Positions 2,526-21,900 are shown, counted from the first letter of the stretch. The stretch is 64,000 bases of DNA from Candidatus Avigastranaerophilus sp. (GCA_045599645.1 JAZRWI010000089.1:33657-97656); one strand, 5' to 3'. A program made the numbers and translations. The notes: generated by a model from the letters alone, not told the origin.

Positions 2526-3776
2526 TCAGCGTTCCGGAAATTTTTTGCCACAATTGGTGCAGAACAGGCCTTGCATAACGACCTTACTTCCGCAGAAGGG
2601 GCAGAATTTGAAAACAAATCCAGGCTGCGGAGCCACAACTGGCTGATGTGCCGTAACTGGCTCTGGCTGCTGGGTGACAACTGGTTGAGTGACAACGGCA
2701 GGCTGTGCCGGTGCTGCAATGGGTTGAACTACTGATTCAGGCTGCGGTGCTGCAACTGGTTGAACAATAGGCTTCGGTTGAGGTGCTGCAACAGGCTGCG
2801 GTGCAATAGTAGGTTTGGCTTCTGCAACAGGCTGTGATGCAACAGGCTTGTCTTCCTGGGCAGTCTGTGGAACAATGGCTATAGGCACTGTTTCCCAGAA
2901 GCTAAGGTCAATATTATCTACAGTTGAGAATTGTGCAGAACCATCTGCCTCTGTGATTTCAAACAATTTGTCTGTTGTTATGAAATATTTTCTGTAATTG
3001 CCAGTGCCAAGGTCTTTATAACTGATTCTTACATTGCCACCGTCTGGAACCATGTATTTTCTTGTGCTTTCGCCGGGAAGATAGGTATCTTGTATTTCTG
3101 TGGCGGTCAGGAATCCTTTGCTTACAAGACCAGAAACAGCTTTTTGATATCGATTGTCGTCTTCGTATATATTCAGAATGGCGTTATCTGTAAAAAGGTC
3201 TGCGGCAAGAAGCTCTGTTAGAAAATCTTTCTTGAAGGCCTTCAGATTCACCATTGATTCTTCTTTTGTAAGAGGTCTGCCAGCCGTCTTAAAGGCTTTG
3301 CCGATTACAAAAAGACTTATATTGAGAAGAGAAAGTTCGTCATTGGTAAGAGAAAAGGAAACCTTTTCGCTACTGGCCGGGTGCCAGTTTCCAAAGGTAG
3401 AACTGATGACAAATGGCTTGATTATTTCAGGGAGAACAGGTGATGTGAGACTGACCAGTTTTTGCTTGTAATCAATGACTATATATATCCAGAAGCCTTT
3501 ATAATAATTATATATGCAGGGACCGTTTTCGCTGGCTGAAGCGTTATCAAGTAAAATAGTCTTTTCTGGTTCACAGATAACCTTTGCTATTTTTTCGGCT
3601 TTAACAGTGAGTTTACCGTTTTTGTAAAAGCCCAGCGATTCTGTTTTTGATAAATCGTTTTGAAGGTTTTCTCCTTCATACTGCATATAACCAGCGGAAA
3701 GTTCGCTTGGTTGCAGCCCAGAGGCTTTTAAGAAAGCGGCATAATAATCAAATGTAAAAAGGTGTTGAATAATCAC
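2526..3776 (-). CDS. Hypothetical protein with P/Q/V/A-rich repeat linker and C-terminal zinc-ribbon
   Basis: 416-aa ORF with a GTG start at 3776 and an AGGAGAA RBS about 7 nt upstream. The C-terminus carries CPFC-x13-CTNC (zinc ribbon), preceded by about 75 aa of PQPVAAPQP-type repeats. I recognise no motif in the N-terminal 300 aa. It appears to form an operon with 1..2507. Confidence 0.8.
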   Translation of the reverse strand: MIIQHLFTFDYYAAFLKASGLQPSELSAGYMQYEGENLQNDLSKTESLGFYKNGKLTVKAEKIAKVICEPEKTILLDNASASENGPCIYNYYKGFWIYIVIDYKQKLVSLTSPVLPEIIKPFVISSTFGNWHPASSEKVSFSLTNDELSLLNISLFVIGKAFKTAGRPLTKEESMVNLKAFKKDFLTELLAADLFTDNAILNIYEDDNRYQKAVSGLVSKGFLTATEIQDTYLPGESTRKYMVPDGGNVRISYKDLGTGNYRKYFITTDKLFEITEADGSAQFSTVDNIDLSFWETVPIAIVPQTAQEDKPVASQPVAEAKPTIAPQPVAAPQPKPIVQPVAAPQPESVVQPIAAPAQPAVVTQPVVTQQPEPVTAHQPVVAPQPGFVFKFCPFCGSKVVMQGLFCTNCGKKFPER

Positions 3777-3885
3777 AACTGGTTCTCCTATAAAATCACT
3801 CAGAAATTAATATAGCATATTGTTGGAAATTGGACAATAAAAGGGCGCTGCGCTAGGAGGGCGGCCTTTGGCCTAGGAGGGCGTA

Positions 3886-3930
3886 CCGCGGGAGCAGGTT
3901 GCGTAGTCTGTGGGTTCAGCATTGCCAGCC
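3886..3930. repeat. 45-bp direct repeat, copy A (partner at 11074..11118)
   Basis: CCGCGGGAGCAGGTTGCGTAGTCTGTGGGTTCAGCATTGCCAGCC matches 11074..11118 at 43/45 positions in the same orientation. Read on the minus strand it encodes ..NAEPTDYATCSRG.., a remnant of the C-terminus of the 11049..11489 protein. Confidence 0.9.
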
Positions 3931-4077
3931 ATTGTTTAATCTAAAGTTATTGTTTCTGATTTTTCAGATAATATTGAATTAATAAAGGTTGATTAAATAG
4001 AAGCTTCTGCATTAGTTTTTTCTGTTATTTTTTATTGATTGTGTTATTATAAATAAAAAAAACGGTAGAAAATCAAT

Positions 4078-5370
4078 ATGGAAGAAAAAACCTTAAATAG
4101 CGAAAATAGAATCCTTCAGGCTATGGAAGGTAAGCTTTATGTTTTCCCTGAATCTAGAAACTATTTAATTATTATTTCAGTGGTAATAGTTGTTTTTGCA
4201 TTATGTGTCTGGGGGGTAAAAGGAAAAGTTAATGAGTATGTAAAAGGTGTCGGCATTATTACAACAATGACAAACTATACGCCTGTAACAAGCTTTTGCG
4301 ATGGGCTGATTGAATATCTTGATGTAAATGAAGGCGATGAAGTTATATGTGGACAAACTATTGGAAAAGTTTTTTCTATTGATGTCTATATTGAAGTGAT
4401 GAATATAAGAAAAGAGTTAGATATACATAATAAAAGACTTAAATTTTATCAGACCTCTCTTGAAAATATAAAAATTCGGAAAAAAGAAGTTTCTGATGCT
4501 AGCGTACGATATATTAAGGAAAATCTGGCTCGAATTAATAACCAGATAAAATGGTTCAGTGCTTATATAGAAAAATTGGAAACTGTTTCAAAGCGTGGGG
4601 CTGTTCCCTCTAATCTTGTTGCTGATACAAAATTTAAATTTGATTCAATCTTAGAAAATAAAGCTTTGCAGGAATTTGCTTTGATTGAGAATAAGCTGAA
4701 ATTAGAAGAACAATTGGCGAATTTGGATTTTGAATTAGACAAATATCAGGTGGAATTAGAAGAAATAAAAATAAAAGCCGAGGAAGCTTATTCTAAGTAT
4801 GTTAGATCAGGATATATTTTTGCCAGGGATACTGGTAAGGTTGCAGAAATTACAGCACCAAAAGGCGATCAGGTAAAAAATGGTGATACAGTATTATATT
4901 TGATAACTGAAAAAAATGATGATGCGCTGGTAGAAGTAACAGCTTATTTTCCCTTTAAGGATGTAAGAAAAATAGAAAAAGGTATGAAGGTCAGAGTTAT
5001 TCCTTCATATATAAAATTTGAACACGACGGTGCCATTTTGGGAACAGTTGTCTCTATAGATAGAGATGTTGTATCTGACAAAAAATTACAGCGATTGTAT
5101 AAAAGTGAAACTTTGTCACAGCAATTATTTTCACAAAACGATAATTTACCAGTAAGAGTAACTATTTTTCTTGAACAGAACAGTAAGTCTCCTAGCGGTT
5201 TTAATTGGACAACAGGGATTGGACCAGAAATTAAAATAAAGGATAATACATTATTTTCTGCACTGGTTACTGTTAATCAGGTTGCTCCATTTGAGCTTTT
5301 GTTCGGTAAAATTCAAAAATCTGTATTTGGTAAAAATGAGCAAATGACTTTGGAGAAAATTAATGAATAG
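4078..5370 (+). CDS. HlyD-family membrane-fusion / secretion adaptor protein
   Basis: 430 aa. It has an N-terminal TM anchor (LIIISVVIVVFALCVWGV). Lipoyl-like hairpin motifs (GLIEYLDVNEGDEVICGQTIGKV and GKVAEITAPKGDQVKNGDTVL) flank a long coiled coil. It overlaps the next ORF by 8 nt. Confidence 0.85.
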   Translation: MEEKTLNSENRILQAMEGKLYVFPESRNYLIIISVVIVVFALCVWGVKGKVNEYVKGVGIITTMTNYTPVTSFCDGLIEYLDVNEGDEVICGQTIGKVFSIDVYIEVMNIRKELDIHNKRLKFYQTSLENIKIRKKEVSDASVRYIKENLARINNQIKWFSAYIEKLETVSKRGAVPSNLVADTKFKFDSILENKALQEFALIENKLKLEEQLANLDFELDKYQVELEEIKIKAEEAYSKYVRSGYIFARDTGKVAEITAPKGDQVKNGDTVLYLITEKNDDALVEVTAYFPFKDVRKIEKGMKVRVIPSYIKFEHDGAILGTVVSIDRDVVSDKKLQRLYKSETLSQQLFSQNDNLPVRVTIFLEQNSKSPSGFNWTTGIGPEIKIKDNTLFSALVTVNQVAPFELLFGKIQKSVFGKNEQMTLEKINE

Positions 5371-6583
5371 GTCTTTGGTTTCATTTATTTGTATTCTTCT
5401 ATTAGGAGTTTTTATTTATTTTTGCGGAAATGATGTTTGCGACATTGTTACAAAAAATATTTATTTGATAAGAGATGTAGTTGATAACGGTTTGGTGGAT
5501 AAGAAGCACAGAATAGAAGCTGTTAAGAATAATGAAGTTATTAAATTGGCTTTATTTGGAGATTTAAGTAAATTTAAGAATTATGGGATAGATATTAAGA
5601 AAGCTTATGAATTTGTTGCAGAGGAAATAAATGCTTCCAGGATATTAAATAAGAAATTGCAGATAGTTTCTTTTGATAAAGAAGGCGATGTTTATAGATA
5701 TCAGGAAGTGGCAAAATTGATTGCTGAAGATCCAACTGTTTTTGGTGTAATTGGACCTTTTGAGACTAAGTATTTAATCGGTTTTTCTGAGATTTTTGCT
5801 AGTGCCGGGTTGTTCGAAATTATTCCAATATCAATTCGTGATAGATTTTTTGAAAATAAACCGAAGTCTTTATTTATAACTTCTTCTTCATGTGATTCGG
5901 TTGCTGATGCGTGGATTGAATTCTTCTCTAAGAATGGTTTTAATAATGCTTTTTTGTTGGATTTATTTGAACACCATAATGGCAGATGTGGCGTCAGTAA
6001 AAAAATATTAGAAAAAATGTTTAAATCAAACTTAAACTTTGCTTATAGATATGAAATAGATAAGATTGATGTAGAATGGTTAAGAGAAGATTTGAAAGAG
6101 TCAAAGAGCTATTTTGAATCAAATAATATTTTTATTGTATCAAATAAGCATTTTGATCAAACTTATTCTTTTGAACTGTTAGATATGGTCTTAGATGTAT
6201 TTAATGATGGTAACGTCTTTTATGATGATTTAATTTCATTAGATGAGATTAAGGATATAAAGTTTAATCATGACCGGTTCTTTGCTTCCTGTTTTTATGA
6301 AGATACTGAAGTTTTCAGGGTATTGATAAATAAACTAAGTAAACAGCCATGGTATAAAAATGATTTTATTACTCTTCGCATTTATGAAGATTTATGGCTT
6401 CTAGCAGATGCCATTCAGAAATCAGGAAGTTATGAATGCGATAAAATCTCTGAATATATGCTTAATAATACTTTAAATACTCCATTAGGTAATTTTTCTT
6501 TTTCAAAAGATGGCTATGTTGATAAGTATCCTGCTTGTATTATGAGTATTTCTGATGTTGAAAAGATATGGAGCAATAAATAG
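5363..6583 (+). CDS. Membrane-anchored type-1 periplasmic-binding-protein-like protein (LivK/ANF-receptor fold)
   Basis: 406 aa with an N-terminal hydrophobic signal/anchor. The pattern IKLALFGDLS.. / EEINASRILNKKLQIVSFDKEGD / VFGVIGPFETKY is typical of PBP1 branched-chain-type binding proteins. It is translationally coupled inside the exporter operon. Confidence 0.65.
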   Translation: MNRSLVSFICILLLGVFIYFCGNDVCDIVTKNIYLIRDVVDNGLVDKKHRIEAVKNNEVIKLALFGDLSKFKNYGIDIKKAYEFVAEEINASRILNKKLQIVSFDKEGDVYRYQEVAKLIAEDPTVFGVIGPFETKYLIGFSEIFASAGLFEIIPISIRDRFFENKPKSLFITSSSCDSVADAWIEFFSKNGFNNAFLLDLFEHHNGRCGVSKKILEKMFKSNLNFAYRYEIDKIDVEWLREDLKESKSYFESNNIFIVSNKHFDQTYSFELLDMVLDVFNDGNVFYDDLISLDEIKDIKFNHDRFFASCFYEDTEVFRVLINKLSKQPWYKNDFITLRIYEDLWLLADAIQKSGSYECDKISEYMLNNTLNTPLGNFSFSKDGYVDKYPACIMSISDVEKIWSNK

Positions 6584-6600
6584 GAAGGGCATTTATATTT

Positions 6601-8778
6601 ATGAGACTTTTTAATAGATATTGTAAATGTCCGATAAGGTTTCAGCGCGGTAAAAACGAAAGCGCTTTAGTTGCCCTGCAGATGATTCTGGCTTACTATA
6701 AAGCTTTCGTTCCCATAGAAACATTGAGAGATAATTGTTGTGTTGAAAGAGATGGAATAAATGATGAAGGCCTTATAAAGGTTGGTAGTTTTTATGGTTT
6801 AAACGGTAATGCTTACTTAAATATAAGTTCTGATGATTTATTAAATTACCCGATTCCGTCTGTAATTAAGTTTAATAATGGTGATTATGTGACCTTTACG
6901 GGAATGAAAGGCAATAAATATTGTTTTAACCATCCTGAAAAAGGCGAGTTGTCCTATGGGAAGAGAGAGTTTGAAGAAAATTTTTCAGGAAACCTTTATA
7001 CTTTCACGCAGAATAAAAATTTTAAAACCTTTGGTCATGACAGATCGGTCGCAAATGCTATTTTTCACTTCTCAATGCAGGATTCTGGCGGATTAGTAAT
7101 TTTATTTTTAATTTGTTTGTTATTAGTTCCTCCAACTGTTATAACACCGAATTTAAATAAAATATTTATAGATAATATTTTAAATGATGAAAAGGTATAT
7201 TGGGGTATTCCAATGATATCTATTGTCGTTGTTCTGTTTTTTTTAACTTTGATATTATCTTTCTTTCATAATATTGAACTGACAAAAATGAATCTAAGGT
7301 TGTCTTCGAAAAGTTCTATTGCATATATAATGAAGATGTTTCAGGTTCCTGGCGTTTTTTTTGCTTCCAGGTCTCTGGGGGATTTATCTGAAAGACTTTC
7401 TGAAAATAATCAGGTTGCAAAATTTATTACAGATACTCTTGTTCCTAGATTTATAGAAATAGTAATAATGTTTATTTTTGCTGGTTTGCTATTCTATTTT
7501 GATTCTTTTCTTGCAGCAATTACAGTCCTTGCTGTTGTAGCCAATATTAGTTTGTCGATTGTATATGGTTACACATCAAAATATCTTGCTATAGGTGACC
7601 GGGCGTTCAAAACCTCCGCATCGTCTTCTACAATTGTTGGTATTTCCATGATAGAGTCGATGAAATCAACTTCAACCTGTGCCGATTTTGTAAGGCTATT
7701 TATAAGCAATATTAACGAAATTACAATGGCAAAGGATAAATATACGATTATTTCTTCTTACTATACTTGTATTAGAAGGGCAATTGTATTTTTTACCAAG
7801 AATTGTATTACTCTGTTTGCTGTGCTGAAATTACTTAATGGTGATATTTCCGGTGGTGTGTTCATTGTATTTCAGGTTTTACTAAATGGTATTTTCCAAC
7901 CCGTAGAGGGGATTAACATCCTGATAATAAATATAGCACAGGCAGGAAACTCTATTGGCCGAATTGAAGAAATTTTAGATTATGAAGTTCCTGCGCAAAA
8001 AGAGAATCCTGTTTGTCTAAACGAGCGATTAACCGGAAAAATTGAATTTAAGAATATAACCTTTGGTTATAATAAACTTCAGGAGCCTTTAATAAAGAAC
8101 TTTAATTTAACAATTAATCCGGGCGAAAGAATAGCTATTATTGGTTCGTCTGGTTCTGGCAAGTCAACGATTATTAAACTTCTATCCGGAATATTGAAGC
8201 CATGGTCTGGCGAGGTATGCTTTGATGACCGGTCTATAACAGATTATTCAAATGAATATTTAAGGTATTCATTTGCTTCTGTTGATCAGGATATAGTTTT
8301 ATTTGAAAAAGGCACAGTCAAGGATAATATTGCCTTATATGATTCCGCATTGTCTTTGGAAGAAATTGAAAAAGCTGCAAAAGACGCAGTTATTCACAAA
8401 GTTATTGTCAGCCGGCCGGGTGGATATCTGTCGGAAATGGGCTGTAATGATGGTGGATTTAGCGGTGGTGAAAAGCAGAGACTGGAAATTGCAAGAGCCT
8501 TAGCGGTAAATCCTTCTGTTTTATTGCTTGATGAGGCTACAAGTGCCTTAGATACTTTAACAGAAGCTGAAGTAGATAATAATATAAGAAAAAGGGGAAT
8601 TACAACGGTAATTGTTGCTCACAGACTATCTACAATCAGAGACGCTGATAAAATTATTGTTTTGCATAAAGGAGAAATTAAAGAGGTTGGTAAGCACGAA
8701 GAATTATTGGCATTAAGGGGAATCTATTATTCTTTAGTAAGCTCAGGCAAGGAAGGCGGCGAAGAAAGCTATGATTGA
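6601..8778 (+). CDS. ABC exporter (TMD+NBD) with N-terminal C39-like domain that looks catalytically degenerate
   Basis: 725 aa. The NBD carries Walker A GSSGSGKST, signature FSGGEKQR and Walker B LLLDEAT. A six-TM exporter core precedes it. In the N-terminal 130 aa (C39 fold), the positions I align to the Cys/His/Asp triad read NES-A, DYVTF and NHP. Confidence 0.85.
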   Translation: MRLFNRYCKCPIRFQRGKNESALVALQMILAYYKAFVPIETLRDNCCVERDGINDEGLIKVGSFYGLNGNAYLNISSDDLLNYPIPSVIKFNNGDYVTFTGMKGNKYCFNHPEKGELSYGKREFEENFSGNLYTFTQNKNFKTFGHDRSVANAIFHFSMQDSGGLVILFLICLLLVPPTVITPNLNKIFIDNILNDEKVYWGIPMISIVVVLFFLTLILSFFHNIELTKMNLRLSSKSSIAYIMKMFQVPGVFFASRSLGDLSERLSENNQVAKFITDTLVPRFIEIVIMFIFAGLLFYFDSFLAAITVLAVVANISLSIVYGYTSKYLAIGDRAFKTSASSSTIVGISMIESMKSTSTCADFVRLFISNINEITMAKDKYTIISSYYTCIRRAIVFFTKNCITLFAVLKLLNGDISGGVFIVFQVLLNGIFQPVEGINILIINIAQAGNSIGRIEEILDYEVPAQKENPVCLNERLTGKIEFKNITFGYNKLQEPLIKNFNLTINPGERIAIIGSSGSGKSTIIKLLSGILKPWSGEVCFDDRSITDYSNEYLRYSFASVDQDIVLFEKGTVKDNIALYDSALSLEEIEKAAKDAVIHKVIVSRPGGYLSEMGCNDGGFSGGEKQRLEIARALAVNPSVLLLDEATSALDTLTEAEVDNNIRKRGITTVIVAHRLSTIRDADKIIVLHKGEIKEVGKHEELLALRGIYYSLVSSGKEGGEESYD

Positions 8779-10999
8779 TAATAAAGATAAGGTTCTTAGC
8801 CAGATGAGCGAAATCCTTGAAAAGCATAAAGAATCTGAGAACAAGAGAATAAAATCTATTGAAAATTCTTTTGATAAAATTTTTGGCAATTCAGAAAAAC
8901 GTGATTTTGTTCCTTTGCCTAATAACCCTTTGCAGGCAGTAGTTTCTTATGTGGCTAAGTGCTATGGTTTACCTGATTTTAAACTTATCGATGATTCGGA
9001 TAAGTGCATAGCAGATTGTGACAGTAAAATTCAACGTATTATCGAAATTCTGAAAATTTCATGCGGCCGCTCTGGAATATTGGCTTGTTCAGTCTCTCTT
9101 GCAGATGATTGGTATAGCAGTAGTTTTGATCCGTTGATTGTGATAGGAAAAGATGATTCTTCTGTTTTTGCAGTAGTAAATCAAGGTGACAAGAGTATTG
9201 CCATTAATGGAGCAACAGGTGATAGAATTATTGTAGACAAGGAAACATACAAAAATTTCTATAGCTTTGCCTGGTATTTTGCTCGTTCATTACCTAATAA
9301 ATCTTTGACAATCTGGGAATTTCTGAGGTTTGTTTTTTATCCTCAAAGGCATACTATTATTAAATTTTTGGTAGTGTCTTTCCTGGTAAATACATTTTTG
9401 AGTTTTATTACACCATTAATAAATTATATTGTTTTTAGTGAAATAATACCAAATTCTAATAAAAGCTTAATTTTGTATTTGATAATAGCTACTGTGATTT
9501 TTTCTTTGGCGCAAAGCTGGCTGACTTATGTGCAATATGTTATTTTCGGTGTTCTTGCGCATTGGGGCGAAAAAGAAGTAGCTATTTCCATTTGGGACAG
9601 ATTAACCAGATTGCCTGTTTCTTTTTTTAAGAATATTTCTGCTGGTGATTTAGCCAGTAAATTTTCGGCTATTGGTAATATGTTTTTGGCTGTTCAAAGG
9701 GTTGTAATACACATAGGTGGACTGTTTCTGTTTCTGGGAGCTGCTTATTTTGCACCGATACCTTCTTTATGGGCTCTGTTTCTTGTGACCATAGTTGCAA
9801 TCATTCAATTTTATTCTTATAAATATTCTAAAAAATATATGTCCATTGAAACTGCTATTGGCAATAGAACTCAAGGCGTGTTCGTACAGTTTTTGAAGGG
9901 AATTACAAAATTACGGATTGCTGGTGCAGAAGCTGCTGTTACAGACATTTGGTTAAATGGATTTACAGAACAGAAATTAGTATATAAAAAATCATCTATG
10001 ATTAGTAAAATACCATTGGTTCTTCAGAATACATTGCCACAGATAATGTTTGTTGTTATTTCTTCTGCTATATTAATGCAGTTATATAGCTCGAATAAAT
10101 TGCCAATATCTGATTTTGCTGCGTTTATCTCTGCAATAACTATTTTTTCAAATAGCACTATAAGGATAGGACTTGGTTTAATGGCTTGTTTTTCTGATTA
10201 TGCTTCAATAAGTCAATTCCTTCCAATATTAGAGGCTGTGCCCGAAAAATATGATTACTCTTCAACTGTAACGCAGAATCCGGAAGGAAAGATTGAGGTT
10301 AATCATCTTAAATTCTCTTATGACAATAATAGAGAAGTTCTTAGTGACGTTTCGTTTTGTGCAAATCCAGGGGAACTGATAGCTATAACCGGCTCTTCTG
10401 GTTCTGGAAAATCAACCTTATTCAGGCTTATGCTAGGGTTAGAAACTCCAACAAGTGGTTCAATCCTATATGATGATGTTGATATGCTTCATTTAAACCT
10501 TGAATATTTTCGTAGTAAAATAGGGGTTGTGTTGCAGAATGCTGCTCTAATGCCAGATACAATACTAAGAAACATCATTGGTTATTCTTTGGATTTGTCT
10601 GAAGAAGATGCCTGGAAGGTGGCAGAACAGACAGGCTGTGATGAGGATATCCGAAGTTTTCCAAAACAGATGTATACTAAGATAACTACTGGAAGCGTAA
10701 TTTCTGGAGGGCAGAGGCAGAGAATTGCCTTAGCCAGGGCATTGGTTAAAAAACCAAAGATTATTTTCCTTGATGAGGCTACAAGTGCTTTGGATAATAA
10801 GACTCAGGCTATTGTTACAGAATCTCTCAGGCAGTCTGGAGCTACCAGAATCGTAATCGCTCATAGATTGAGCACTATTATTGATGCTGATAAAATCTTT
10901 TATTTAGACAAAGGAAAAATAGTTGAACAAGGCACTTATAAGGAATTGATGAACCTGAACGGGCACTTTGCTGCTATGGCACGTCGTCAGATTGCTTAA
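8771..10999 (+). CDS. Second ABC exporter (TMD+NBD) with about 190-aa N-terminal accessory domain
   Basis: 742 aa. The NBD carries GSSGSGKST, ISGGQRQR and IFLDEAT. The N-terminal extension (LQAVVSYVAKCYGLP ... FDPLIVIGKDDSSVFAVV ... IIVDKETYKNFY) resembles a second non-catalytic C39-like fold. It overlaps the upstream ABC gene by 8 nt. Confidence 0.85.
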   Translation: MIDNKDKVLSQMSEILEKHKESENKRIKSIENSFDKIFGNSEKRDFVPLPNNPLQAVVSYVAKCYGLPDFKLIDDSDKCIADCDSKIQRIIEILKISCGRSGILACSVSLADDWYSSSFDPLIVIGKDDSSVFAVVNQGDKSIAINGATGDRIIVDKETYKNFYSFAWYFARSLPNKSLTIWEFLRFVFYPQRHTIIKFLVVSFLVNTFLSFITPLINYIVFSEIIPNSNKSLILYLIIATVIFSLAQSWLTYVQYVIFGVLAHWGEKEVAISIWDRLTRLPVSFFKNISAGDLASKFSAIGNMFLAVQRVVIHIGGLFLFLGAAYFAPIPSLWALFLVTIVAIIQFYSYKYSKKYMSIETAIGNRTQGVFVQFLKGITKLRIAGAEAAVTDIWLNGFTEQKLVYKKSSMISKIPLVLQNTLPQIMFVVISSAILMQLYSSNKLPISDFAAFISAITIFSNSTIRIGLGLMACFSDYASISQFLPILEAVPEKYDYSSTVTQNPEGKIEVNHLKFSYDNNREVLSDVSFCANPGELIAITGSSGSGKSTLFRLMLGLETPTSGSILYDDVDMLHLNLEYFRSKIGVVLQNAALMPDTILRNIIGYSLDLSEEDAWKVAEQTGCDEDIRSFPKQMYTKITTGSVISGGQRQRIALARALVKKPKIIFLDEATSALDNKTQAIVTESLRQSGATRIVIAHRLSTIIDADKIFYLDKGKIVEQGTYKELMNLNGHFAAMARRQIA

Positions 11000-11048
11000 A
11001 CATTTTTTGTAACCATTGAATGATTTACTGATTTCTTTTCAAACAGTC

Positions 11049-11489
11049 TCATTTGCTCTTCACTTGCCATTTCCCGCGGGACCAGGTTGCGTAGTCTGTG
11101 GGTTCAGCATTGCCAACCCTGTGCTGAATGATGCCGCGGCCAATGATATAGGTTCCGCAGGTGCAGACCTTGGTGCCCTTGCCTGCAACATACGGAAGGG
11201 CATCCTTGGCGTCTTTTAATTCGTTTATTGGTTTATGACCGCATTTACATGCTGGCAGCGGCTCCTGGCCGATGAAAAGCTGTCTTTCAAGCCAGGCAAT
11301 ACCATGAACTACGAACAGCAAAAGAGCAGGTCCGATTAAAATACCGGCATAGCCCCAGTATTCCCCGTATCTGGAAAAAAACACATCACCGAAATAGCCT
11401 GCGATTATAAGCAGGGCCAGGGCAACAGTTTCCATTTTAAGGCCACCCTTTTTGTTGTTTGTAATTCTTGGTTTCATTGGTTTATACAT
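11049..11489 (-). CDS. Small membrane protein with C-terminal Cys cluster (hypothetical)
   Basis: 146-aa ORF. The more likely start is ATG 11435, preceded by an AAGGGTGG RBS. It has two TM helices and then a CKC...CTC cluster. Its 3' end contains copy B of the 45-bp repeat. The overlapping track ORF 11016..11219(+) is a shadow. Confidence 0.55.
   Translation of the reverse strand: MYKPMKPRITNNKKGGLKMETVALALLIIAGYFGDVFFSRYGEYWGYAGILIGPALLLFVVHGIAWLERQLFIGQEPLPACKCGHKPINELKDAKDALPYVAGKGTKVCTCGTYIIGRGIIQHRVGNAEPTDYATWSRGKWQVKSK
11074..11118. repeat. 45-bp direct repeat, copy B (partner at 3886..3930)
   Basis: Matches copy A at 43/45 positions. It lies inside the 3' coding end of 11049..11489(-). 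Confidence 0.9.
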
Positions 11490-11490
11490 A

Positions 11491-11952
11491 CTTGGTATCG
11501 AAGTGTAGCTAGTAAAGCTTTAAGCTCCAAGCTTTAAGCTTTAAGCTCCAAGCTTTAAGCTCCAAGCTATAAGCTATAAGCTTTAAGCTCCAAGCTATAA
11601 GCTATAAGCTATAAGCTCCAAGCTATAAGCTATAAGCTTTAAGCTATAAGCTCCAAGCTATAAGCTATAAGCTATAAGCTCCAAGCTATAAGCTATAAGC
11701 TTTAAGCTCCAAGCTCCAAGCTATAAGCTATAAGCTTTAAGCTCCAAGCTATAAGCTATAAGCTCCAAGCTATAAGCTATAAGCTTTAAGCTATAAGCTC
11801 CAAGCTTCAAGCTTTAGGCTTCCGGCTTCCAGCGGCCTGCTTTCTCGGCCAAGAGCTAAGAGCCAGCAGCCAAAAGCTTATTGCAACAAACCTTATACCC
11901 ACCTGGTATCGAAGCACTGTCCTGCTTCAAGCTTATAGCTTCCAGCTTCCTA
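11491..11952. repeat. Composite element: conserved 30-bp left end, about 45 tandem heptamers (AAGCTNN), about 100-bp core, short second array
   Basis: 11491-11520 is identical to 18126-18155. The array at 11514-11838 uses the units AAGCTTT, AAGCTCC and AAGCTAT. The core at 11832-11930 (..GGCCTGCTTTCTCGGCCAAGAGCTAAGAGCC..AAACCTTATACCCACCTGGTATCGAAGCACTGTCCTGCTTC) is homologous to the cores at 18306-18409 and 18614-18708. Confidence 0.95.
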
Positions 11953-13818: not shown

Positions 13819-14064
13819 ATGTCAGCAACGTTAAAAGGTTATTTTGATGGAAACAAAATAGTATTTGATGACAATATAACGCTTAATGCTGGGCAAAAAG
13901 TTCTTGTTACTATACTTGATCAGATTGATTTGAATCAAAAAGCGATCAGAAAAGAAAAAATACATAATGCTTTGCTTAGATTATCTGGGGCTTTGTCTGG
14001 TATAAATATCACTGAAGAAGAAATCCGTGACGAACGTTTGAAAAAGTATGAAACTACTGATTGA
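13819..14064 (+). CDS. Antitoxin of a PIN-type toxin-antitoxin pair (DUF104/VapB-like)
   Basis: 81 aa. The N-terminal pattern (KGYFDGNKIVFDDNITLNAGQKVLVTIL) is typical of small PIN-associated antitoxins. It overlaps the PIN gene by 17 nt. Confidence 0.7.
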   Translation: MSATLKGYFDGNKIVFDDNITLNAGQKVLVTILDQIDLNQKAIRKEKIHNALLRLSGALSGINITEEEIRDERLKKYETTD

Positions 14065-14470
14065 TACAAATGTAATTTTAGATGTTTTGTTACATCGGGA
14101 AGTCTTTTTTGATAATTCTTTCAGTGTTATGCAGTTAATAGAAAAAGATGATTTTGAAGGTTATATTTCGGCCTCATCCATTACAGATATTTTTTATATA
14201 GTAAATAAGAAATTAAAAGATAAAGAGTTGGTTATTAGCTTATTAAAAGATATTTTAACGATTGTTGAAATTCAAGGAGTTAACAGGCAAGAGATTTTTT
14301 CTGCATTAGCTCTTGGGTGGGATGATTTTGAAGATGCTGTTCAATATTCTACAGCTGTTTTTGCTGACATGGATTGTATTATAACAAGAAATAAAAGTGA
14401 TTTTTCAATGTCAAAAATACCAGTTTATACTCCTAAAGAAGCATTAGAAGAATTTTCTAATCAATTATAG
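14048..14470 (+). CDS. PIN-domain ribonuclease toxin (VapC-like)
   Basis: 140 aa with the acidic PIN signature residues in context: LLIDTNV, DFEDAVQ and IITRNKSDF. Confidence 0.85.
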   Translation: MKLLIDTNVILDVLLHREVFFDNSFSVMQLIEKDDFEGYISASSITDIFYIVNKKLKDKELVISLLKDILTIVEIQGVNRQEIFSALALGWDDFEDAVQYSTAVFADMDCIITRNKSDFSMSKIPVYTPKEALEEFSNQL

Positions 14471-14515
14471 ATTAGTTTTTGAAGTGAAAATAAGTAAAAC
14501 GAAAGATAATAAAAT

Positions 14516-15133
14516 ATGACTACTAACCAGACTATTGATTTTTATGATAATAATGCGGCTGATTTTTGTGAAAAGCATGATTCTGTGAGCTTGGATCTGT
14601 TTCATAAAGCGGTCAGGGAAAATATACCGGCAGGTTCTAGGATTATTGAGATTGGCTGTGGTTCTGGTCGTGATGCTGCACGCTCTCTGGCTGATGGCTA
14701 TGATATTATTGCCATGGACGGCTCAAAGGGATTGCTGGCAGAAATTCCTCGTTTTCATCCTGAATTAAAGGACAGGCTGCTTTTCGGTATTCTTCCGTGT
14801 AGATTTGATTACCCTGATGGGTATTTTGACGGCTTTTATTCTGTAGCCTGCCTTATGCATTTATATGAAAAGGATTTGCCCGAAACCCTGAAGGAACTGA
14901 ACAGAATAGTCAAAAAGGGTGGCAAAGGCCTTGCATCTATTCCCACAACACGTAATGATGTAAAGGATGACGGAATTGATGAAAAAGGCCGCGTAATGAA
15001 CGTTATGGCCTTAGAAAAATGGGAAAGCTATTTCAAGGCAGCCGGCTTTGCTGTTTCCCGTGGCGATGAAGAACCCGATAAGCTCGGTCGTCCCGGTATT
15101 TTCTGGTTAACCTTTATCCTGACCAAGCTTTGA
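14516..15133 (+). CDS. Class I SAM-dependent methyltransferase
   Basis: 205 aa. It carries the motif I sequence IIEIGCGSGRDA and a downstream acidic loop (IIAMDGS). Confidence 0.85.
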   Translation: MTTNQTIDFYDNNAADFCEKHDSVSLDLFHKAVRENIPAGSRIIEIGCGSGRDAARSLADGYDIIAMDGSKGLLAEIPRFHPELKDRLLFGILPCRFDYPDGYFDGFYSVACLMHLYEKDLPETLKELNRIVKKGGKGLASIPTTRNDVKDDGIDEKGRVMNVMALEKWESYFKAAGFAVSRGDEEPDKLGRPGIFWLTFILTKL

Positions 15134-15137
15134 TAAG

Positions 15138-16439
15138 TTAGAGGTCTATAGATTGTTCGTCTAGCAGGAACTGTTCCAGACCAAGGTATAGAATGCCTTT
15201 TTCGTCTCGCCATGGCTTTATATAGTCACGAACAACAACTATTTTATTGAAAGAATCAGGTATTCGCTCTAAGGAAGCTATTTCTTGCTTCCTTTTGTCC
15301 GGGTCTGCTATTGATAAAGCAGATTGAATATAATAACGCTTCAGACCACGGTTAACTACAAAATCAACCTCTAATTGTTTCCTTATTTTTTTGTTATCAT
15401 CGGTTTTCAGGTTTTGTTCAACTACACCAACATCTATGTCAAATCCTCTTCTGAGCAAATCGCAGTATAGAATGTTTTCCATAATATGGGTCTCTTCCTG
15501 CTGCCTGAAGCCAAGACGTGCATTTCTTAATCCTACATCAGTAAAATAGTATTTTAGTGGCGTTTTTAAGTATTTTTTGCCTTTTACGTCGAAACGTTCT
15601 GTTTTATTTATTAAAAAGGCATCAACAAAGTAGCCTAAATATTTTTCTATAGTGGCTGAACTGATTTTGATCTGTTTTTCGCTGGCAAAAGTATTTGAAA
15701 GCTTTGTTGGATTGGTAAGAGAGCCTGTTGATGAGGCTACTATATTTATCAAATCTTCTATGATAGATTTTTCGTTTTGTATTTTGTTTCGTTCCAGAAT
15801 GTCTTTAAAATAAGTTCTTGCAAACAAGTCTCGTAGATATTTGCTTTTTTCTTCATGGGTTTCTAGCGAAAGTACAAAAGGCATGCCACCATATGTGTAA
15901 AAATCTTGCCAGATTATTCTTGGGTCACCGTTTTGGGTTTCAAAAAATTCAGCATAGGACAGCGGATGCACACGAATTTCATCTCCTCTGTCTCTAAACT
16001 GGGTCAGAATATCTGAAGATAGCATCTTTGAATTACTACCAGTGATATATATGTCAGCATTTTTTATTTTCATAAGGCCAAGAATTACATCAACAAAAGT
16101 GATTTTATTTTCTTTGCTGTCTATGTATGGATTCTGGATAGTTGAAACGAATTGTATTTCGTCAATAATGATGTAATAGTGTCTGTTACTGTCTACTATT
16201 CTTTCTCTTATATATTTATCGAGTTTAATTGGATTTCTGTATTCTATATTCGATAATTCTTCTAACGAGATTTTTATTATTTCATTGTCTGATATGCCAA
16301 TAGATTTTAAATATTTTGTGTATAACTCAAACAGCAAATAAGATTTTCCACAGCGTCTTATACCGGAAATGATTTTTACTCTTCCGTTGTCTTTTTTCTT
16401 TATTAAGGCTTGTATATACTGGTTCCTGTTGATTTTCAT
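15138..16439 (-). CDS. AAA-type ATPase of the DUF4143 (COG1373) family
   Basis: 433 aa with P-loop GIRRCGKSYLL and Walker B YYIIIDEIQ. The C-terminal region is typical of DUF4143 proteins. Confidence 0.85.
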   Translation of the reverse strand: MKINRNQYIQALIKKKDNGRVKIISGIRRCGKSYLLFELYTKYLKSIGISDNEIIKISLEELSNIEYRNPIKLDKYIRERIVDSNRHYYIIIDEIQFVSTIQNPYIDSKENKITFVDVILGLMKIKNADIYITGSNSKMLSSDILTQFRDRGDEIRVHPLSYAEFFETQNGDPRIIWQDFYTYGGMPFVLSLETHEEKSKYLRDLFARTYFKDILERNKIQNEKSIIEDLINIVASSTGSLTNPTKLSNTFASEKQIKISSATIEKYLGYFVDAFLINKTERFDVKGKKYLKTPLKYYFTDVGLRNARLGFRQQEETHIMENILYCDLLRRGFDIDVGVVEQNLKTDDNKKIRKQLEVDFVVNRGLKRYYIQSALSIADPDKRKQEIASLERIPDSFNKIVVVRDYIKPWRDEKGILYLGLEQFLLDEQSIDL

Positions 16440-16450
16440 AATTTTGCCCG

Positions 16451-16558
16451 AAAAATTATTGCGGATTCCGCATTTTTTTTACGAGTAAATTATATCAGTG
16501 TTATTCGTAAAAATCAAACTACTCAAAAAATTATTGCGGATTCCGCATTTTTTTTACG
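16451..16558. repeat. Two copies of a 33-bp palindrome-containing direct repeat
   Basis: AAAAATTATTGCGGATTCCGCATTTTTTTTACG occurs at 16451-16483 and again at 16525-16558. Each copy contains the inverted repeat GCGGA-T-TCCGC flanked by A and T runs. The pair lies between two co-directional minus-strand genes. Confidence 0.85.
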
Positions 16559-16572
16559 GGTTGGTCTTGGGT

Positions 16573-17547
16573 TTATTTTCGAGAAAAAACAACGGCTTGT
16601 TTTATAGAGGCTAAAATAATACTGACTACTCTTGGCTGTAAATAAATATCGGGAAGTTTGGACTTACTATATTGATATTTTGTTGAGTTGGTAAGTTTTG
16701 TGAGTAAATCAGTAAAGTAGCGTTCCCAACTGAAATAGTTATTACTATTAATGTAATCAGACGGATTCATGAGTATATTATCCAGGTCTTTATCTTCAAA
16801 AAGTTTCGAAGCTAAGATTAACCATTCAAAAGACTCTGGTAAATATAATTTAATGTTTTTATTTCCAATAAGTTTAACAATACGATCTATTTCAGAACCA
16901 AATGCTGCACCATCAGCAATAATCAGGGTGCCTTTATCATTCTGACTATCAAGCAAATGGAATATGTTTGCTTTACCCTTAGCAGATTCACAGTCTATTG
17001 CATTTTGTTGGCAAACAGCAGAAAAAAAATCATTTCCGGAATTTGAATCTTCAGTTATTATTTTTTCTGGGATTATAGGAACAGACAAAAATCTTTCATT
17101 GGAATAAATCTTATAAAATTCGTGATAGGTCTGGTTTAAATAATTATATTTTCCAGAATTTTTAATGCCGTATATTTCATTAACACTGTATGGCAACGAA
17201 TGTAAGCTTTCTCTGGTTACAATAACATAGTAATTGTCTGTATTTTTTATACAATTAGCAAAATCGTGGGAAGAAACAAAATAATTACCTTCATCAATAA
17301 ACACAATGCTATCAGAGATTAAGCCCAGTTGTTTCTGCCAGTTATTACCATTTATTACTGCACAGGTTTTGTCACATATTAATTCGATACCACTTTCTAT
17401 ACCGTTTTCAGAGTATTCGCGAATCATATCAACTAAAGAGGTTTTGCCTGTTGCACTGTTGCCCTGAATTATTGTAATGTTTCGCCTTAGTTCAAAATCA
17501 TAGCGTAAGCGTTTACTACGAATCGATATTTTATGAATGCCTTTCAT
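16573..17547 (-). CDS. Compact P-loop NTPase with C-terminal TOPRIM/DUF4435-like region (OLD/PARIS-like, tentative)
   Basis: 324 aa. Walker A is QGNSATGKTS and Walker B is IVFIDEG only about 45 aa later. The C-terminal half has acidic motifs (IITEDSNSGND and LIIADGAAFGSEID) reminiscent of TOPRIM. The fold assignment is inference. Confidence 0.6.
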   Translation of the reverse strand: MKGIHKISIRSKRLRYDFELRRNITIIQGNSATGKTSLVDMIREYSENGIESGIELICDKTCAVINGNNWQKQLGLISDSIVFIDEGNYFVSSHDFANCIKNTDNYYVIVTRESLHSLPYSVNEIYGIKNSGKYNYLNQTYHEFYKIYSNERFLSVPIIPEKIITEDSNSGNDFFSAVCQQNAIDCESAKGKANIFHLLDSQNDKGTLIIADGAAFGSEIDRIVKLIGNKNIKLYLPESFEWLILASKLFEDKDLDNILMNPSDYINSNNYFSWERYFTDLLTKLTNSTKYQYSKSKLPDIYLQPRVVSIILASIKQAVVFSRK

Positions 17548-17555
17548 AAAATCAC

Positions 17556-18032
17556 CTATACGTATCTGCCAGCTATTGGAATTAATTCTTCCATGCTTGT
17601 AACAATCTGATTTGTATTAAGTAATTTAACCTTGAATTTTTCAGGACCAAAATCCATCAGGTGGCGTAGGTTTATTACAATATCTTTTTCTTTGGCTATC
17701 TTTAATAGCCATTTGGCACAGTTATCGCCACAGGTTGAAGCATTAAATACTTTGTCCGGTTCGTTAAAAATAAGAATCAAAGTTTTAACACCACCAGACA
17801 ACGCCAAGGGCGAAATCTTGCCTAATACTGGACTATCGATAACAGCGTTCCCTAACACAGTAGATTTATCAACATCAAGTATCATTTTTTTGGCAAAATC
17901 GTTTGTTATCCAAGAATCTTCATAAGTATTCTTGAAATATACAGACGTATTAAAAACAGCCTCAGGCATATCGCCATAAAAGATGCTTAACATCAAATTA
18001 CCGCCTTTTTCAGATATCAATAGTATAGCCAT
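17556..18032 (-). CDS. DUF4869-like small protein
   Basis: 158-aa ORF. The probable true start is ATG 17993 (MLSIFYGDMPEA..) with an AAGG RBS. It contains LSGGVKTLILIFNEPD, which resembles an ABC signature. It ends 8 nt before the downstream ATPase gene. Confidence 0.7.
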   Translation of the reverse strand: MAILLISEKGGNLMLSIFYGDMPEAVFNTSVYFKNTYEDSWITNDFAKKMILDVDKSTVLGNAVIDSPVLGKISPLALSGGVKTLILIFNEPDKVFNASTCGDNCAKWLLKIAKEKDIVINLRHLMDFGPEKFKVKLLNTNQIVTSMEELIPIAGRYV

Positions 18033-18125: not shown

Positions 18126-18846
18126 CTTGGTATCGAAGTGTAGCTAGTAAAGCTTTAAGCTTTAAGCTATAGGCTCCAAGCCCCAAGCCCCAAGCCCCAA
18201 GCCCCAAGCCCCAAGCTATAAGCTATAGGCCCCAAGCCCCAAGCTATAAGCTATAGGCCCCAAGCCCCAAGCTATAAGCTATAGGCTCCAAGCTTCTAGC
18301 TTCAGGCTTCCGACGGCCTGCTTTCTCGGCCAAGAGCTAAAAGCTAAGAGCCAAAAGCCTATTGAACCAAACCTTATACCCGCTTGGTATCGAAGCACTG
18401 TCCTGCTTCTAGCTTCAAGCTTCAAGCTTTAAGCTATAGGCTCCAAGCTCCAAGCCCCAAGCTCCAAGCTCCAAGCTCCAAGCCCCAAGCCCCAAGCTAT
18501 AAGCTATAGGCCCCAAGCTCCAAGCCCCAAGCTATAAGCTATAGGCTCCAAGCCCCAAGCCCCAAGCTATAAGCTATAAGCTATAGGCTCCAAGCTTCTA
18601 GCTTCTAGCTTCAGGCTTCCGACGGCCTGCTTTCTCGGCCAAGAGCTAAAAGCCAAAAGCCTATTGAACCAAACCTTATACCCGCTTGGTATCGAAGCAC
18701 TGTCCTGCTTCTAGCTTCAAGCTTCAAGCTTTAAGCTATAGGCTCCAAGCCCCAAGCCCCAAGCCCCAAGCTCCAAGCTCCAAGCTCCAAGCTATAGGCT
18801 CCAAGCTTCTAGCTTCTAGCTTCTAGCTTCTAGCTTCAAGCTTATC
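18126..18846. repeat. Composite element: three heptamer arrays separated by two copies of an about 100-bp core
   Basis: The left end at 18126-18155 equals 11491-11520. The arrays lie at about 18149-18310, 18406-18612 and 18705-18846 and use the units CTTTAAG, CTATAAG, CTATAGG, CTCCAAG, CCCCAAG, CTTCTAG and CTTCAAG. The cores lie at 18306-18409 and 18614-18708 and differ by a 7-nt indel. Confidence 0.95.
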
Positions 18847-18987: not shown

Positions 18988-21900
18988 ATGATTGAGCTAA
19001 TACTGATGGATATTTGCAGGCACAAAATGCAGAAAGACAAAAAATATAGAATTAGAGCGGACATTAAGAAAAGAGCAATGGCTCTGGCTGTTGCTTTGTC
19101 TGTTTTTCTCCAATCCACAACTGTTTCTTTTGCTGCAGCTCCGACTTTTGGTGCCGGTTCAGGCACCAATAGCACTGCAGCGGGTGTTAACAATACTGCT
19201 GACGGTGCAAATAGCACTGCTGTAGGTTTGGGTAACACGGCAAATGGTTCGCATAATGTTGCTGTTGGCTCAACTAATAATGCCGATGGAACCTATACCG
19301 CTGCACTAGGAACTTATAACAATATTAATGGCTATGAAAGTAACGCAATCGGTGACGACAATAATGTTACTGGTTCCCATACAAATGCAATAGGTTCCCG
19401 AAACACCACTGATGCTAATAATAGCAATGCTATAGGGTCATACAATAAAGCAATGGCTGAAAATAGCAGTGCTTTTGGTTACAAGAATACCGCTAATGGT
19501 GAAAACAGTGTGGCTTTCGGTTTTGCTAATCTGGCTGAGATTGGTAGTTCTACGGCAATAGGTGTCTCAAATACTGCTAATGGCGATGAAAGTAGTGCAC
19601 TAGGTTTTTCCAATATTGCTACGGGTAGTTTAAGTTCTGCTATTGGTGCTGAAAATATTGCTGACGGTAATTACAGTAGCGCCTTTGGTGGTCATAACAA
19701 AGCTAATGGTATTCTAAGTAACGCCTTCGGTTATTTTAACGAAGTAAATGGCTATACTAATGTTGCTATGGGTTCCAACAATACTGCTTCAGGTTCCTAT
19801 GCCAGTGCCATGGGAACATTTAATAAAATCTATTATGGTCATGAAAGCAATGCAATAGGTGATGATAATACTGCCAGTGGTACTCGTACTAATGCTATCG
19901 GTAGTTATAACCAAACTTATGCCAATTATAGTAATGCAATAGGTACTCAGAACAACACAAATGGAGAATATGCCAGTGCCTTTGGTGCAGAAAATACTGC
20001 TGGTGGAGAATACAGCAGTGCTTTGGGTTACCACAATACTGCATCGGGCTATTTTAGTTCTGCTGTGGGTAGCGAAAACAAAGCCTATGCCGATTATGGC
20101 TCAGCAATAGGTGTTTATAATTATGTAAACCAAGAATCTGCTAGTGCTTTGGGTTACAAAAATACTTCTTCAGGTCTTGAAAGCAGTGCTATGGGTGCAG
20201 AAAATACTGCTTCAGGAGAAACTAGCAGTGCCATTGGGAATAAGAATAGTGCTGAGGGTGTGAATGCAAGTTCTGTTGGTGTAGAAAATACTGCTGCTGC
20301 TTTCAGTAGTGCTGTTGGTTATTTTAACAAGGCTGTAGGTGGAAATAGCTTTGCTTTCGGTGGTTATAACGAAGCCAATGGAAATTTTAGCAGTGCTTTT
20401 GGTATTGGCAATGATGCTTTTGGCCGCGATAGCACTGCCATGGGCAGTGAGAATGCTGCAACAGGTAATAAGAGTTTGGCTATTGGGTATGCCAACAATA
20501 GAGAGTTTATCCCTATACTTTCCATCTTATCGCCTGTTGATGCCATTGATACAGGTGAAAATAGCACCGCAGTAGGCTATGTTAACGTTGCTATCGGCAC
20601 AAATAGCAGTGCTTTGGGTTATATGAATAGAACCGAAGGTGAAAATAGCACCGCAGTAGGCTATAAGAATTCCTCAGCCGGTCTAAGAAGTAGTTCTATT
20701 GGTTATAATAACGTTGCTAGTGGCACAAACAGTACCGCGGTCGGTTATTCCAACAATGCACATGATTCTATGAGTGCTGCAATGGGTACGGGCAACGAAG
20801 CGATAGGCGAATTTACCAGTGCCATTGGATCTAGCAATTACGTTAAAGGCTATGAAAGTAATGCTATTGGTGATGACAATAATGCTTTGGGTATGAATTC
20901 GAATGCTGTCGGTAGTCATAACGAAGTTTATGACAATAATAGTAATGCAATAGGTACTGGGAACTATATCGAAGGTGAAAACAGCAGTGCTTTTGGTACT
21001 GAAAACGAAGTAATCCTCTCTAATAGCAGTGCTTTCGGTTTGAGTAACAGTGTTTCAGGGGAAAAGAGCAATGCATTGGGTTATAAAAATGAGGTTCTTA
21101 CTAATGATAGCAATGCTATAGGTAGCTTAAATAAATCTAAAGGCGGCCTTAGTAGTGCTATTGGTTATTCTAATGAAGCTTCTGGCTATATGGGCACCGC
21201 TGTCGGTTATGGTAACTCAGCTTTTGCTAATGGAAGCAGCGCTTTGGGTAATGCAAACCAGGCAAACAGCTATGAAAGCAGTGCCATTGGCGCTAAAAAT
21301 ATAGCAAAAGGACCTCAAAGCAGCGCCTTTGGTGCTTCAAATACTGCATTACTCTCCTACAGCACAGCTTTGGGTTATAATAATATTGCTAATGCCGAAT
21401 ACAGTAATGCTTTTGGTAACGTAAATAGAGCTAATAGTGATTATAGCAGCGCGGTAGGTGTTGGCAATATAGCTAATGGGTATTTCAGCAGTGCCTTTGG
21501 GGCCAACAATATTGCAGAAGGGGACTACAGCAATATTTTTGGGATTGATAATGAAGCTTGGGCAGAAAATAGCACCGCAGTAGGCTATGTTAATGTTACT
21601 AGCGGTGCAAATAGCAGTGCTTTTGGTGCAGAGAATGCCGCAGGTGGTGATTACAGCACTGCAGTTGGTTATAAAAATGAGGTTACGAATAAGCACAGTA
21701 TTGCTTTGGGTAGCTTGAATAGTGTTGCAGCTATGCAAAGTAGTGCTATCGGTTATAAAAACGTTGTTTCGGCTTATGAAGGTACTGCTGTTGGTAATTA
21801 TAATGAAGCAAGGGACGTTTCAGCTGGTGCTTTTGGTTATTCTAACAAGGCTATAGGTGAAGAAAGCTATGCTTTCGGTGGTTATAACGAAGCTCATGGA

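Follow-up and report, generated by a model that had tools for sequence, protein, structure and literature searches.

A partial gene duplication flanking an AT-rich exporter operon as a probable recombination scar

A 45-bp direct repeat brackets a four-gene exporter operon in a 64,000-nucleotide stretch of DNA from Candidatus Avigastranaerophilus sp. (GCA_045599645.1, JAZRWI010000089.1:33657-97656), which is hereafter called the window. The operon (4078-10999) consists of closely packed plus-strand genes for a HlyD-type adaptor, a binding-protein-like protein and two ABC exporters (ABC1 and ABC2). It lies between the gene of a small membrane protein (the 146-aa gene) and the gene of a 416-aa protein (the 416-aa gene), and one copy of the repeat belongs to the 146-aa gene. 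In summary, the repeat is probably a recombination scar left by the acquisition of a foreign, AT-rich exporter operon (the cassette) without a dedicated recombinase, a reading to which I assign a probability of roughly 0.6. In that case, horizontal acquisition took an ordinary mechanistic route here, homologous or illegitimate recombination, and left a well-documented scar.

The two 45-mers lie at 3886-3930 (copy A) and 11074-11118 (copy B) in the same orientation and agree at 43 of 45 positions, which reproduces the coordinates and count of an initial annotation of this DNA. The mismatches are G at 3894 versus C at 11082 and G at 3928 versus A at 11116, and the longest exact stretch common to the two copies is 33 bp. 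The identity ends abruptly on both sides, where 3885 differs from 11073 and 3931 differs from 11119. With up to three mismatches allowed, only these two copies were found in the window, and a repeat by chance was ruled out by the lack of any match in 100 dinucleotide-preserving shuffles of the window. Copy B corresponds to codons 125-139 (VGNAEPTDYATWSRG) of the 146-aa gene on the minus strand. It had been described as the 3′ coding end of this gene. It does lie inside the 3′ part, but seven more codons (KWQVKSK) and a stop codon follow at 11049-11073 (hereafter the tail). Copy A had been described as a start-less remnant of the same coding sequence, and this holds: it has no start codon in frame, and its reading in the same frame is ..AGNAEPTDYATCSRGTPS*, with W136 changed to cysteine. 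Among the 19 homologues of the 146-aa protein in a large protein database, both W136 and W141 are conserved without exception.

Where does copy A come from? The window was compared with related loci (numbered with L), mainly from the ENA assemblies ERZ272471xx-2xx, Logan rumen- or gut-type runs, and the metagenome-assembled genomes RUG334 and Candidatus Riflebacteria Reindeer_2_mag_167. In seven independent assemblies (L001 and L002-L007), the 416-aa gene comes immediately after the 146-aa gene and the cassette is absent. Thus, the empty site that the initial annotation had suggested looking for does exist in relatives. The 146-aa protein of the window is 94% identical to that of L001 and 75% identical to those of the six assemblies L002-L007, and the 45-mer is present in a single copy at these empty sites. 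In the alignment, copy A and the adjoining 3885-3777 are colinear with the gene end, the short GC-rich intergenic region and the promoter of the 416-aa gene in L002, L003 and L006. The intergenic region (3777-3885) is 90.7% identical to L002 2181-2288 over 105 nt. Compared with the empty sites, the window lacks about 55 bp here, comprising the last seven codons, the stop codon and the first GC-rich unit (about 30 bp of the intergenic region), with "TA" in their place. Since copy A and its left flank are colinear with the gene end and the intergenic region of the empty sites, copy A is the original 3′ part of the gene, still on its original downstream DNA, which was displaced by 7.2 kb and later trimmed. 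The ancestral order was the 146-aa gene, a short GC-rich intergenic region and the 416-aa gene.

Could the cassette be ancestral and lost from the "empty" relatives, with a repeat that is fortuitous or stems from the assembly? In principle, the cassette could be deleted by recombination of copy A with copy B. However, such a deletion would leave a gene ending in ..ATCSRGTPS* without W136 and W141, and no relative has this end. Rather, the empty sites have the complete gene and the full intergenic region, of which the flank of copy A is a shortened version. The foreign composition of the cassette and the independent occurrence of the same arrangement in L011/L012 also argue against loss. As for an artefact, a chimeric join at the repeat would leave one copy, not two, and the longest exact match spans only those 33 bp. 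This explanation is hardly credible.

The composition of the interval between the copies had been judged by eye to be more AT-rich than that of its flanks, and three comparisons agree on this. The GC content of the interval is 32.6% against 41.0% in the rest of the window, where the lowest value among 458 other 7.1-kb stretches is 36.9%. The tetranucleotide distance of the interval is 0.348, against 0.228 ± 0.027 (maximum 0.301) for other stretches. The GC content at third codon positions (GC3) is 0.22-0.27 in the four cassette genes versus 0.37-0.50 in the adjacent genes. Moreover, the cassette keeps a GC content of about 32-33% in every host context, while the flanks range from 37 to 50%.

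A second occupied site is informative about the boundaries of the insert. L011 and L012 have the same order as the window (a homologue of the 416-aa gene, the cassette and the 3′ end of the 146-aa gene) and are colinear with window 4001-11192 at 89% identity. The window and L011 have in common a similar tail (KWQVK..), a 49-bp spacer between the stop codons of ABC2 and the 146-aa gene, and the same internal deletion (L016 418 to about 624 missing) in a fragment of another gene, gene X, which is described below. Thus, the tail, the spacer, the cassette and the gene X fragment make up one linked block. The spacer is absent from the empty sites and from other cassette contexts (the homology of L013 stops at 10999), and no origin for it or for the right flank of L013, for example on the PAP2 side of the gene X locus, was found among all the loci compared. 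The tail is closer to that of the occupied L011 (19/22) than to that of the empty-site L001 (14/22). L001 and L011 are identical at 74 of 74 positions just upstream of the 45-bp segment, and then differ at 6 of 45 positions in the segment and 8 of 22 in the tail. Thus, the cassette-linked block and the duplication in the window share a boundary to within about 10 bp. Copy A itself is nearest to copy B (43/45), followed by L001 and L002 (40/45) and L011 (36/45), which fits a recent crossover with near-identical homology.

The following course of events may explain these observations. The incoming DNA would have been a fragment of the chromosome of a related strain in which the cassette already lay next to the 146-aa gene. 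Having circularised, this fragment may have entered the resident chromosome by one Campbell-type crossover within the 45-70 bp of the 146-aa gene that it contained. A single crossover of a circle would duplicate exactly the homologous patch, and it would leave the resident gene body followed by the donor tail and spacer, with the resident end beyond the opposite end of the insert. A later 55-bp deletion in the non-functional copy A would be a neutral second step. An equivalent one-step variant would be homology-facilitated illegitimate recombination with the illegitimate joint upstream of the anchor end. Either way, the functional 146-aa gene now ends in copy B together with a tail and a spacer that travel with the cassette. 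A partial target duplication flanking the insert, a copy A colinear with the empty site, and an insert that carries donor-locus chromosomal DNA (gene X) with non-conserved ends were all observed.

The flanks of the cassette point to exchange among strains. The window and L001 agree at 226 of 234 positions across the 5′ half of this gene plus its upstream region (146-aa gene, window 11193-11540), and at about 82-88% in the 3′ half. Pairwise identities in the 416-aa gene are much alike (81-84%) among the window, L011 and the empty group, and in this gene L001 groups with L002-L007. The flanks are strongly mosaic, as judged from these alignments, and recombination among co-resident strains is evidently frequent. 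Such frequent recombination is the setting expected for a recombinase-free exchange of cassettes.

Several points weigh against this explanation of the repeat. The copy A side lacks the last 25 bp of the gene and about 30 bp of the intergenic region, so that a second event, the 55-bp deletion, must be assumed. A homology of 45-70 bp is near the lower limit for a RecA-dependent crossover. In L011, the sole other occupied site found, an unrelated 165-bp sequence takes the place of copy A and most of the adjoining gene X fragment; this locus has no copy A and no direct repeats flanking the cassette, and the duplication is thus seen in one lineage only. The distances among cassettes are star-like (89.4% between the window and L011, 90.5% between L011 and L013), and a single origin of both insertions is not evident from them. 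The window covers 64 kb of the genome, and a recombinase gene or a further 45-mer may exist elsewhere.

The 165-bp sequence of L011 (953-1118) is unique, carries at its ends an inverted repeat of about 13-15 bp (cgcagaggctgtct / agacagcctccgcag), and has a folding energy of about -50 kcal/mol. It may be a small insertion resembling a miniature inverted-repeat transposable element that erased the scar.

Did the window and L011 inherit one old insertion? In this alternative, a single ancient illegitimate insertion occurred in their common ancestor and doubled a target segment of 70 bp or more; the A side was then trimmed in the window and overwritten in L011, and copies A and B are so alike through gene conversion or by chance. 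The two loci indeed have the same site, right junction, spacer and gene X fragment deletion, and where the gene X fragment meets copy A there is a possible microhomology of 3-5 bp at most, which is ambiguous. However, copies A and B differ at 2 of 45 positions, whereas copy B and L011 differ at 7 of 45 over the same segment, and an equally old neutral remnant should have diverged at least as much (Poisson probability of two or fewer differences with a mean of seven, about 0.03). Staggered target duplications of at least 70 bp are also unusual. The ancient insertion is therefore viable but rather unlikely, and the recent crossover is preferred.

Other copies of the cassette reveal what its left end is made of. 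Cassettes elsewhere are 88-90% identical to that of the window, and the homology of the window to L011, L012, L013-L015 and L016 begins at window 4001-4017. In L016, the cassette is immediately downstream of an intact gene X, which encodes a conserved hypothetical protein of 302 aa. There are 63 homologues of this protein, several of them annotated as Candidatus Riflebacteria or Rifleibacterium, and gene X is a core Riflebacteria gene. The gene X sequences of L026/L027 have 12 mismatches to L016 in about 620 aligned bases, and these loci diverge from L016 just past the gene X stop codon, where they have a PAP2 gene and no cassette. The gene X locus is thus a second empty/occupied polymorphism. 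In the window, gene X residues 200-241 match 3919-4032 in a tblastn search (E = 7e-6), with in-frame stop codons. In L013-L015, the cassette is 88% identical to window 4011-10999 and lies between a gene with LysM and Peptidase_C39_2 domains and a gene for a Crp-like regulator; here L013 keeps a different piece of gene X, its last 60 bp or so. Since the gene X fragments differ in extent, the cassette travels with variable scraps of a former neighbour, and its ends are ragged, not defined termini. The segment 3931-4017 is a decayed piece of gene X that was carried in with the cassette from a location adjacent to gene X. No flanking repeats were found around the cassette at these two other loci (L013-L015 and L016), and the left ends differ.

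These comparisons bear on the initial annotation, in which the repeats were an att-like duplication and the footprint of a site-specific or illegitimate insertion into the 3′ end of a gene with the target duplicated. The insertion and the partial duplication of the gene stand. The site-specific part is not supported, and an illegitimate or homology-driven event is favoured, given an L011 without copy A, other loci without repeats and the gene X scrap at the left end. A rival explanation along these lines takes the repeats as the attL and attR of an integrase-less integrative element, similar to cis-mobilisable elements (CIMEs) or mobilisable genomic islands, with the 3′ end of the 146-aa gene as the target and the recombinase encoded elsewhere. 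It would account for direct repeats of att-like length that bracket a cassette of foreign composition at the 3′ part of a gene, for the existence of empty sites, and for a 146-aa gene that is intact after the insertion, as with elements carrying the 3′ end of their target. The same cassette site is also used in two lineages that are about 18% divergent in the 416-aa gene. However, the same insertion in L011 has no copy A, the cassette sits at two other loci with no flanking repeats and with left boundaries that differ inside gene X, and the left end in the window is a pseudogene scrap without a defined terminus. An att-flanked element is decidedly unlikely.

The search for mobility genes gave no support for such an element either. 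In profile scans of the 64-kb window, no recombinase domain was found in the cassette or its neighbours, which confirms the earlier remark that no integrase or transposase is present. The neighbouring genes encode a PIN toxin, a methyltransferase, an AAA_14/DUF4143 protein, DUF4869 and DUF3806 proteins and acetate kinase. The window has no tRNA genes (and no transfer-messenger RNA gene at the junctions), and its first 20 kb have no Rfam matches. The 33-bp exact core of the repeat, like the 45-mer, has no match among viral contigs, and the binding-protein-like gene has none in plasmid and phage records (tblastn) or viral contigs. A transposon with target-site duplication was also considered and rejected: there is no transposase, the best inverted match at the cassette ends is below the shuffle mean, and on the right the duplicated segment is not contiguous with the insert, the 25-bp gene tail and the 49-bp spacer lying between copy B and the ABC2 stop codon.

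The genes behind which the cassette has been found are gene X, the 146-aa gene and the LysM/Peptidase_C39_2 gene. It is conceivable, though unlikely, that the operon is a recombinase-free "hitch-hiking" cassette that moves time and again between unrelated loci in rumen Riflebacteria, as circles containing a scrap of a neighbouring gene and integrates by single crossover, with gene ends as portable substitutes for att sites, or that a trans-acting recombinase recognises the 3′ ends of genes.

The features of the locus are listed in Table 1. The interval had been described as one packed operon with its AT-rich promoter region; the packed four-gene operon is there, and the interval also contains the 87-bp gene X fragment, the 49-bp spacer and the 25-bp gene tail. 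The AT-rich region upstream of the operon was read in the sequences of L011, L013 and L016, and taken from the extent of the BLAST matches for L012, L014 and L015. The 416-aa gene has no match in Pfam or NCBIfam. In L001 and L002-L007 its homologues come immediately after the 146-aa gene, while in L011 the homologue precedes the cassette, and its intergenic region in the window has a sigma-70-like site on the minus strand (3837-3809).

Table 1. Features around the exporter cassette in the window
Feature	Position	Strand	Basis or remark
416-aa gene	2526..3776	-	Open reading frame (ORF); at empty sites, the conserved gene to the right of the 146-aa gene
Native intergenic/promoter region of the 416-aa gene	3777..3885	-	GC-rich CCCTCCTAG units; chromosomal side of the left junction
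Copy A, displaced start-less remnant of codons 125-139	3886..3930	-	Repeat match and alignment to empty sites
Gene X pseudogene fragment, about aa 200-241, in-frame stops	3931..4017	+	80% nt identity to L016 341-417; tblastn
AT-rich region upstream of the operon	4018..4077	+	Present in the cassette copies examined
HlyD-type membrane fusion protein, NHLP bacteriocin export	4078..5370	+	TIGR03794, 196.9 bits; HlyD_3
Peripla_BP_6-like protein, 406 aa	5363..6583	+	PF13458, 33.4 bits
ABC1, ABC exporter with N-terminal C39-like domain	6601..8778	+	TIGR03796; Peptidase_C39, ABC_membrane, ABC_tran
ABC2, partner ABC exporter without peptidase domain	8771..10999	+	Best match TIGR03797
49-bp spacer, ABC2 stop to 146-aa gene stop	11000..11048	.	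Common to the window and L011 only
Intact small membrane-protein gene, 146 aa	11049..11489	-	Copy B at 11074-11118; tail 11049-11073 has the conserved GKW motif

The cargo is a rare NHLP-type exporter variant, which is known from a handful of metagenomic contigs. The HlyD-type adaptor scores above the curated TIGR03794 cut-off (156.2 bits), while ABC1 (637 bits to its best family against a curated cut-off of 853) and ABC2 (570 against 709) score under theirs. A type I-like exporter that spans the envelope would be built from the adaptor, ABC1 and ABC2, and the predicted cargo of the machinery is probably a double-glycine-type peptide or small protein that is exported across both membranes. The C39 domain of ABC1 aligned well to LahT150 (6mpz), a double-glycine protease, and Ser21 and Asp95 were found in the putative catalytic columns, which I take to be those of the catalytic Cys and His of C39 peptidases; both residues recur in L011 and L013. 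In RTX exporters, C39-like domains serve substrate docking rather than cleavage. Since Ser and Asp replace Cys and His, as in those domains, the degenerate C39-like domain of ABC1 probably docks the substrate without cleaving it. A separate gene with LysM and Peptidase_C39_2 domains is located just upstream of the L013 cassette. The Peripla_BP_6-like gene, whose product has the fold of branched-chain amino-acid/urea binding proteins, is an unusual additional member of the operon: in a database of 5.8 billion proteins it has only three other 90% clusters, all within the same cassette. No double-glycine leader was found in the six frames of the window by a crude regular expression, a weak test made without a profile scan of small ORFs, and the same expression picked out no precursor of the NHLP or Nif11 type there; such genes may lie in another part of the genome.

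Other parts of the window and the related loci vary as well. Surveys with the 146-aa protein gave three loci from genomes and nine from metagenomes, all of them distant relatives with other downstream neighbours and no cassette. The 406-aa ORF of L008 was considered as the binding-protein gene of a cassette because of its equal length and was rejected, as its sequence is unrelated. The region downstream of the 146-aa gene varies across the clade; in L030, a tRNA-Leu-like sequence (1830-1878, by eye, with no tRNA scan) lies downstream of a homologue of the 146-aa gene (81%) in place of the 416-aa gene. Tandem arrays of 7-bp units (AAGCTAT / AAGCTCC / GCTTCAA variants), with repeat units of about 120 bp, occur in the window at 11515-11799 and 18157-18843 and in L001 at 1-50 and 482-780. 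One array is upstream of the 146-aa gene, exactly where L002, L003 and L005 have a DUF4097 gene, and L001 has arrays on both sides of the 146-aa gene. The arrays look like a lineage-specific expanding or mobile repeat family. A second low-GC patch (13819-18032) contains an 81-aa ORF followed by a PIN-domain toxin gene (14048-14470), an AAA_14/DUF4143 ATPase gene, a 324-aa ORF of no assigned family and a DUF4869 gene; GC3 is 0.26-0.33 for the latter three. The patch is probably a further accessory or defence-type islet, and a homologue of the AAA_14/DUF4143 gene is found downstream of gene X in L028. Two giant ORFs (18988-33375, 4795 aa, and 33576-43298, 3240 aa) are rich in YadA_head and YadA_stalk repeats and look like trimeric-autotransporter-type adhesins, in a genome that resembles those of Riflebacteria.

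The locus is a clean natural example of how an accessory operon may spread among co-resident strains of an uncultured phylum without mobile-element machinery. Public assemblies contain the empty site, the occupied site both with and without the scar, and cassettes at other loci that retain scraps of a former neighbouring gene. It also gives a caution that direct repeats around an AT-rich block need not be att sites. The cargo is of some interest for its binding-protein-like addition and for a predicted C39 domain without both catalytic residues.

How does the locus compare with known systems? Haft et al. (2010) described a three-gene transport cluster linked to NHLP/Nif11-type peptide precursors (PMC2887384). 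The operon of the window resembles this NHLP/N11P export cassette in having a HlyD adaptor, a peptidase-bearing ABC protein and a peptidase-less ABC protein in one operon. Unlike that cassette, it has a Peripla_BP_6-like gene between the HlyD gene and ABC1, both of its ABC proteins score below the curated cut-offs, Ser/Asp occupy the C39 Cys/His positions, and no NHLP (TIGR03793) or Nif11-type (TIGR03798) precursor was seen in the window with the crude expression. As regards the repeat, CIMEs and mobilisable genomic islands are similar: they, too, are accessory DNA without an integrase, enclosed by direct repeats that lie at the 3′ part of a gene. However, no cognate element or integrase is known for the cassette of the window, its other copies lack the repeat, and its ends are not conserved. 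The minimal mobile elements of Neisseria are alternative cassettes between conserved genes that are exchanged by transformation and homologous recombination. They share with the window a presence/absence cassette between two conserved genes among strains that occur together, the absence of mobility genes, and mosaic flanks, but they normally leave no duplication, whereas the window has a scar and its cassette is also found at unrelated loci.

Homology-facilitated illegitimate recombination, known from Acinetobacter, S. pneumoniae and P. stutzeri, likewise places foreign DNA beside a conserved anchor gene with displaced 3′ pieces downstream, forms ragged joints with little or no homology, and drags along fragments of former neighbours. 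It has been proposed for insertions with displaced gene ends in the type VI secretion system of Vibrio (V. cholerae effector-immunity arrays) and in Rhs loci (PMC5361080). The classical events combine an insertion with a deletion, whereas the window has a duplication, and its microhomology is no longer than 3-5 bp and ambiguous. In an E. coli system for such recombination, locus duplications of 109-950 bp flanked the insert in 56 of 60 clones, and circularised molecules with a partly degraded homologous end integrated by a single crossover (PMC3240628). The duplication in the window is shorter (45 bp, or at most 70 bp before the deletion), its displaced copy has been trimmed further, and the event is inferred from comparison rather than observed. 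Otherwise, the window resembles this Campbell-type integration at lacZ: only part of the homologous locus is duplicated directly, no dedicated recombinase takes part, and the duplicated length would be set by the homology that survives on the incoming molecule.

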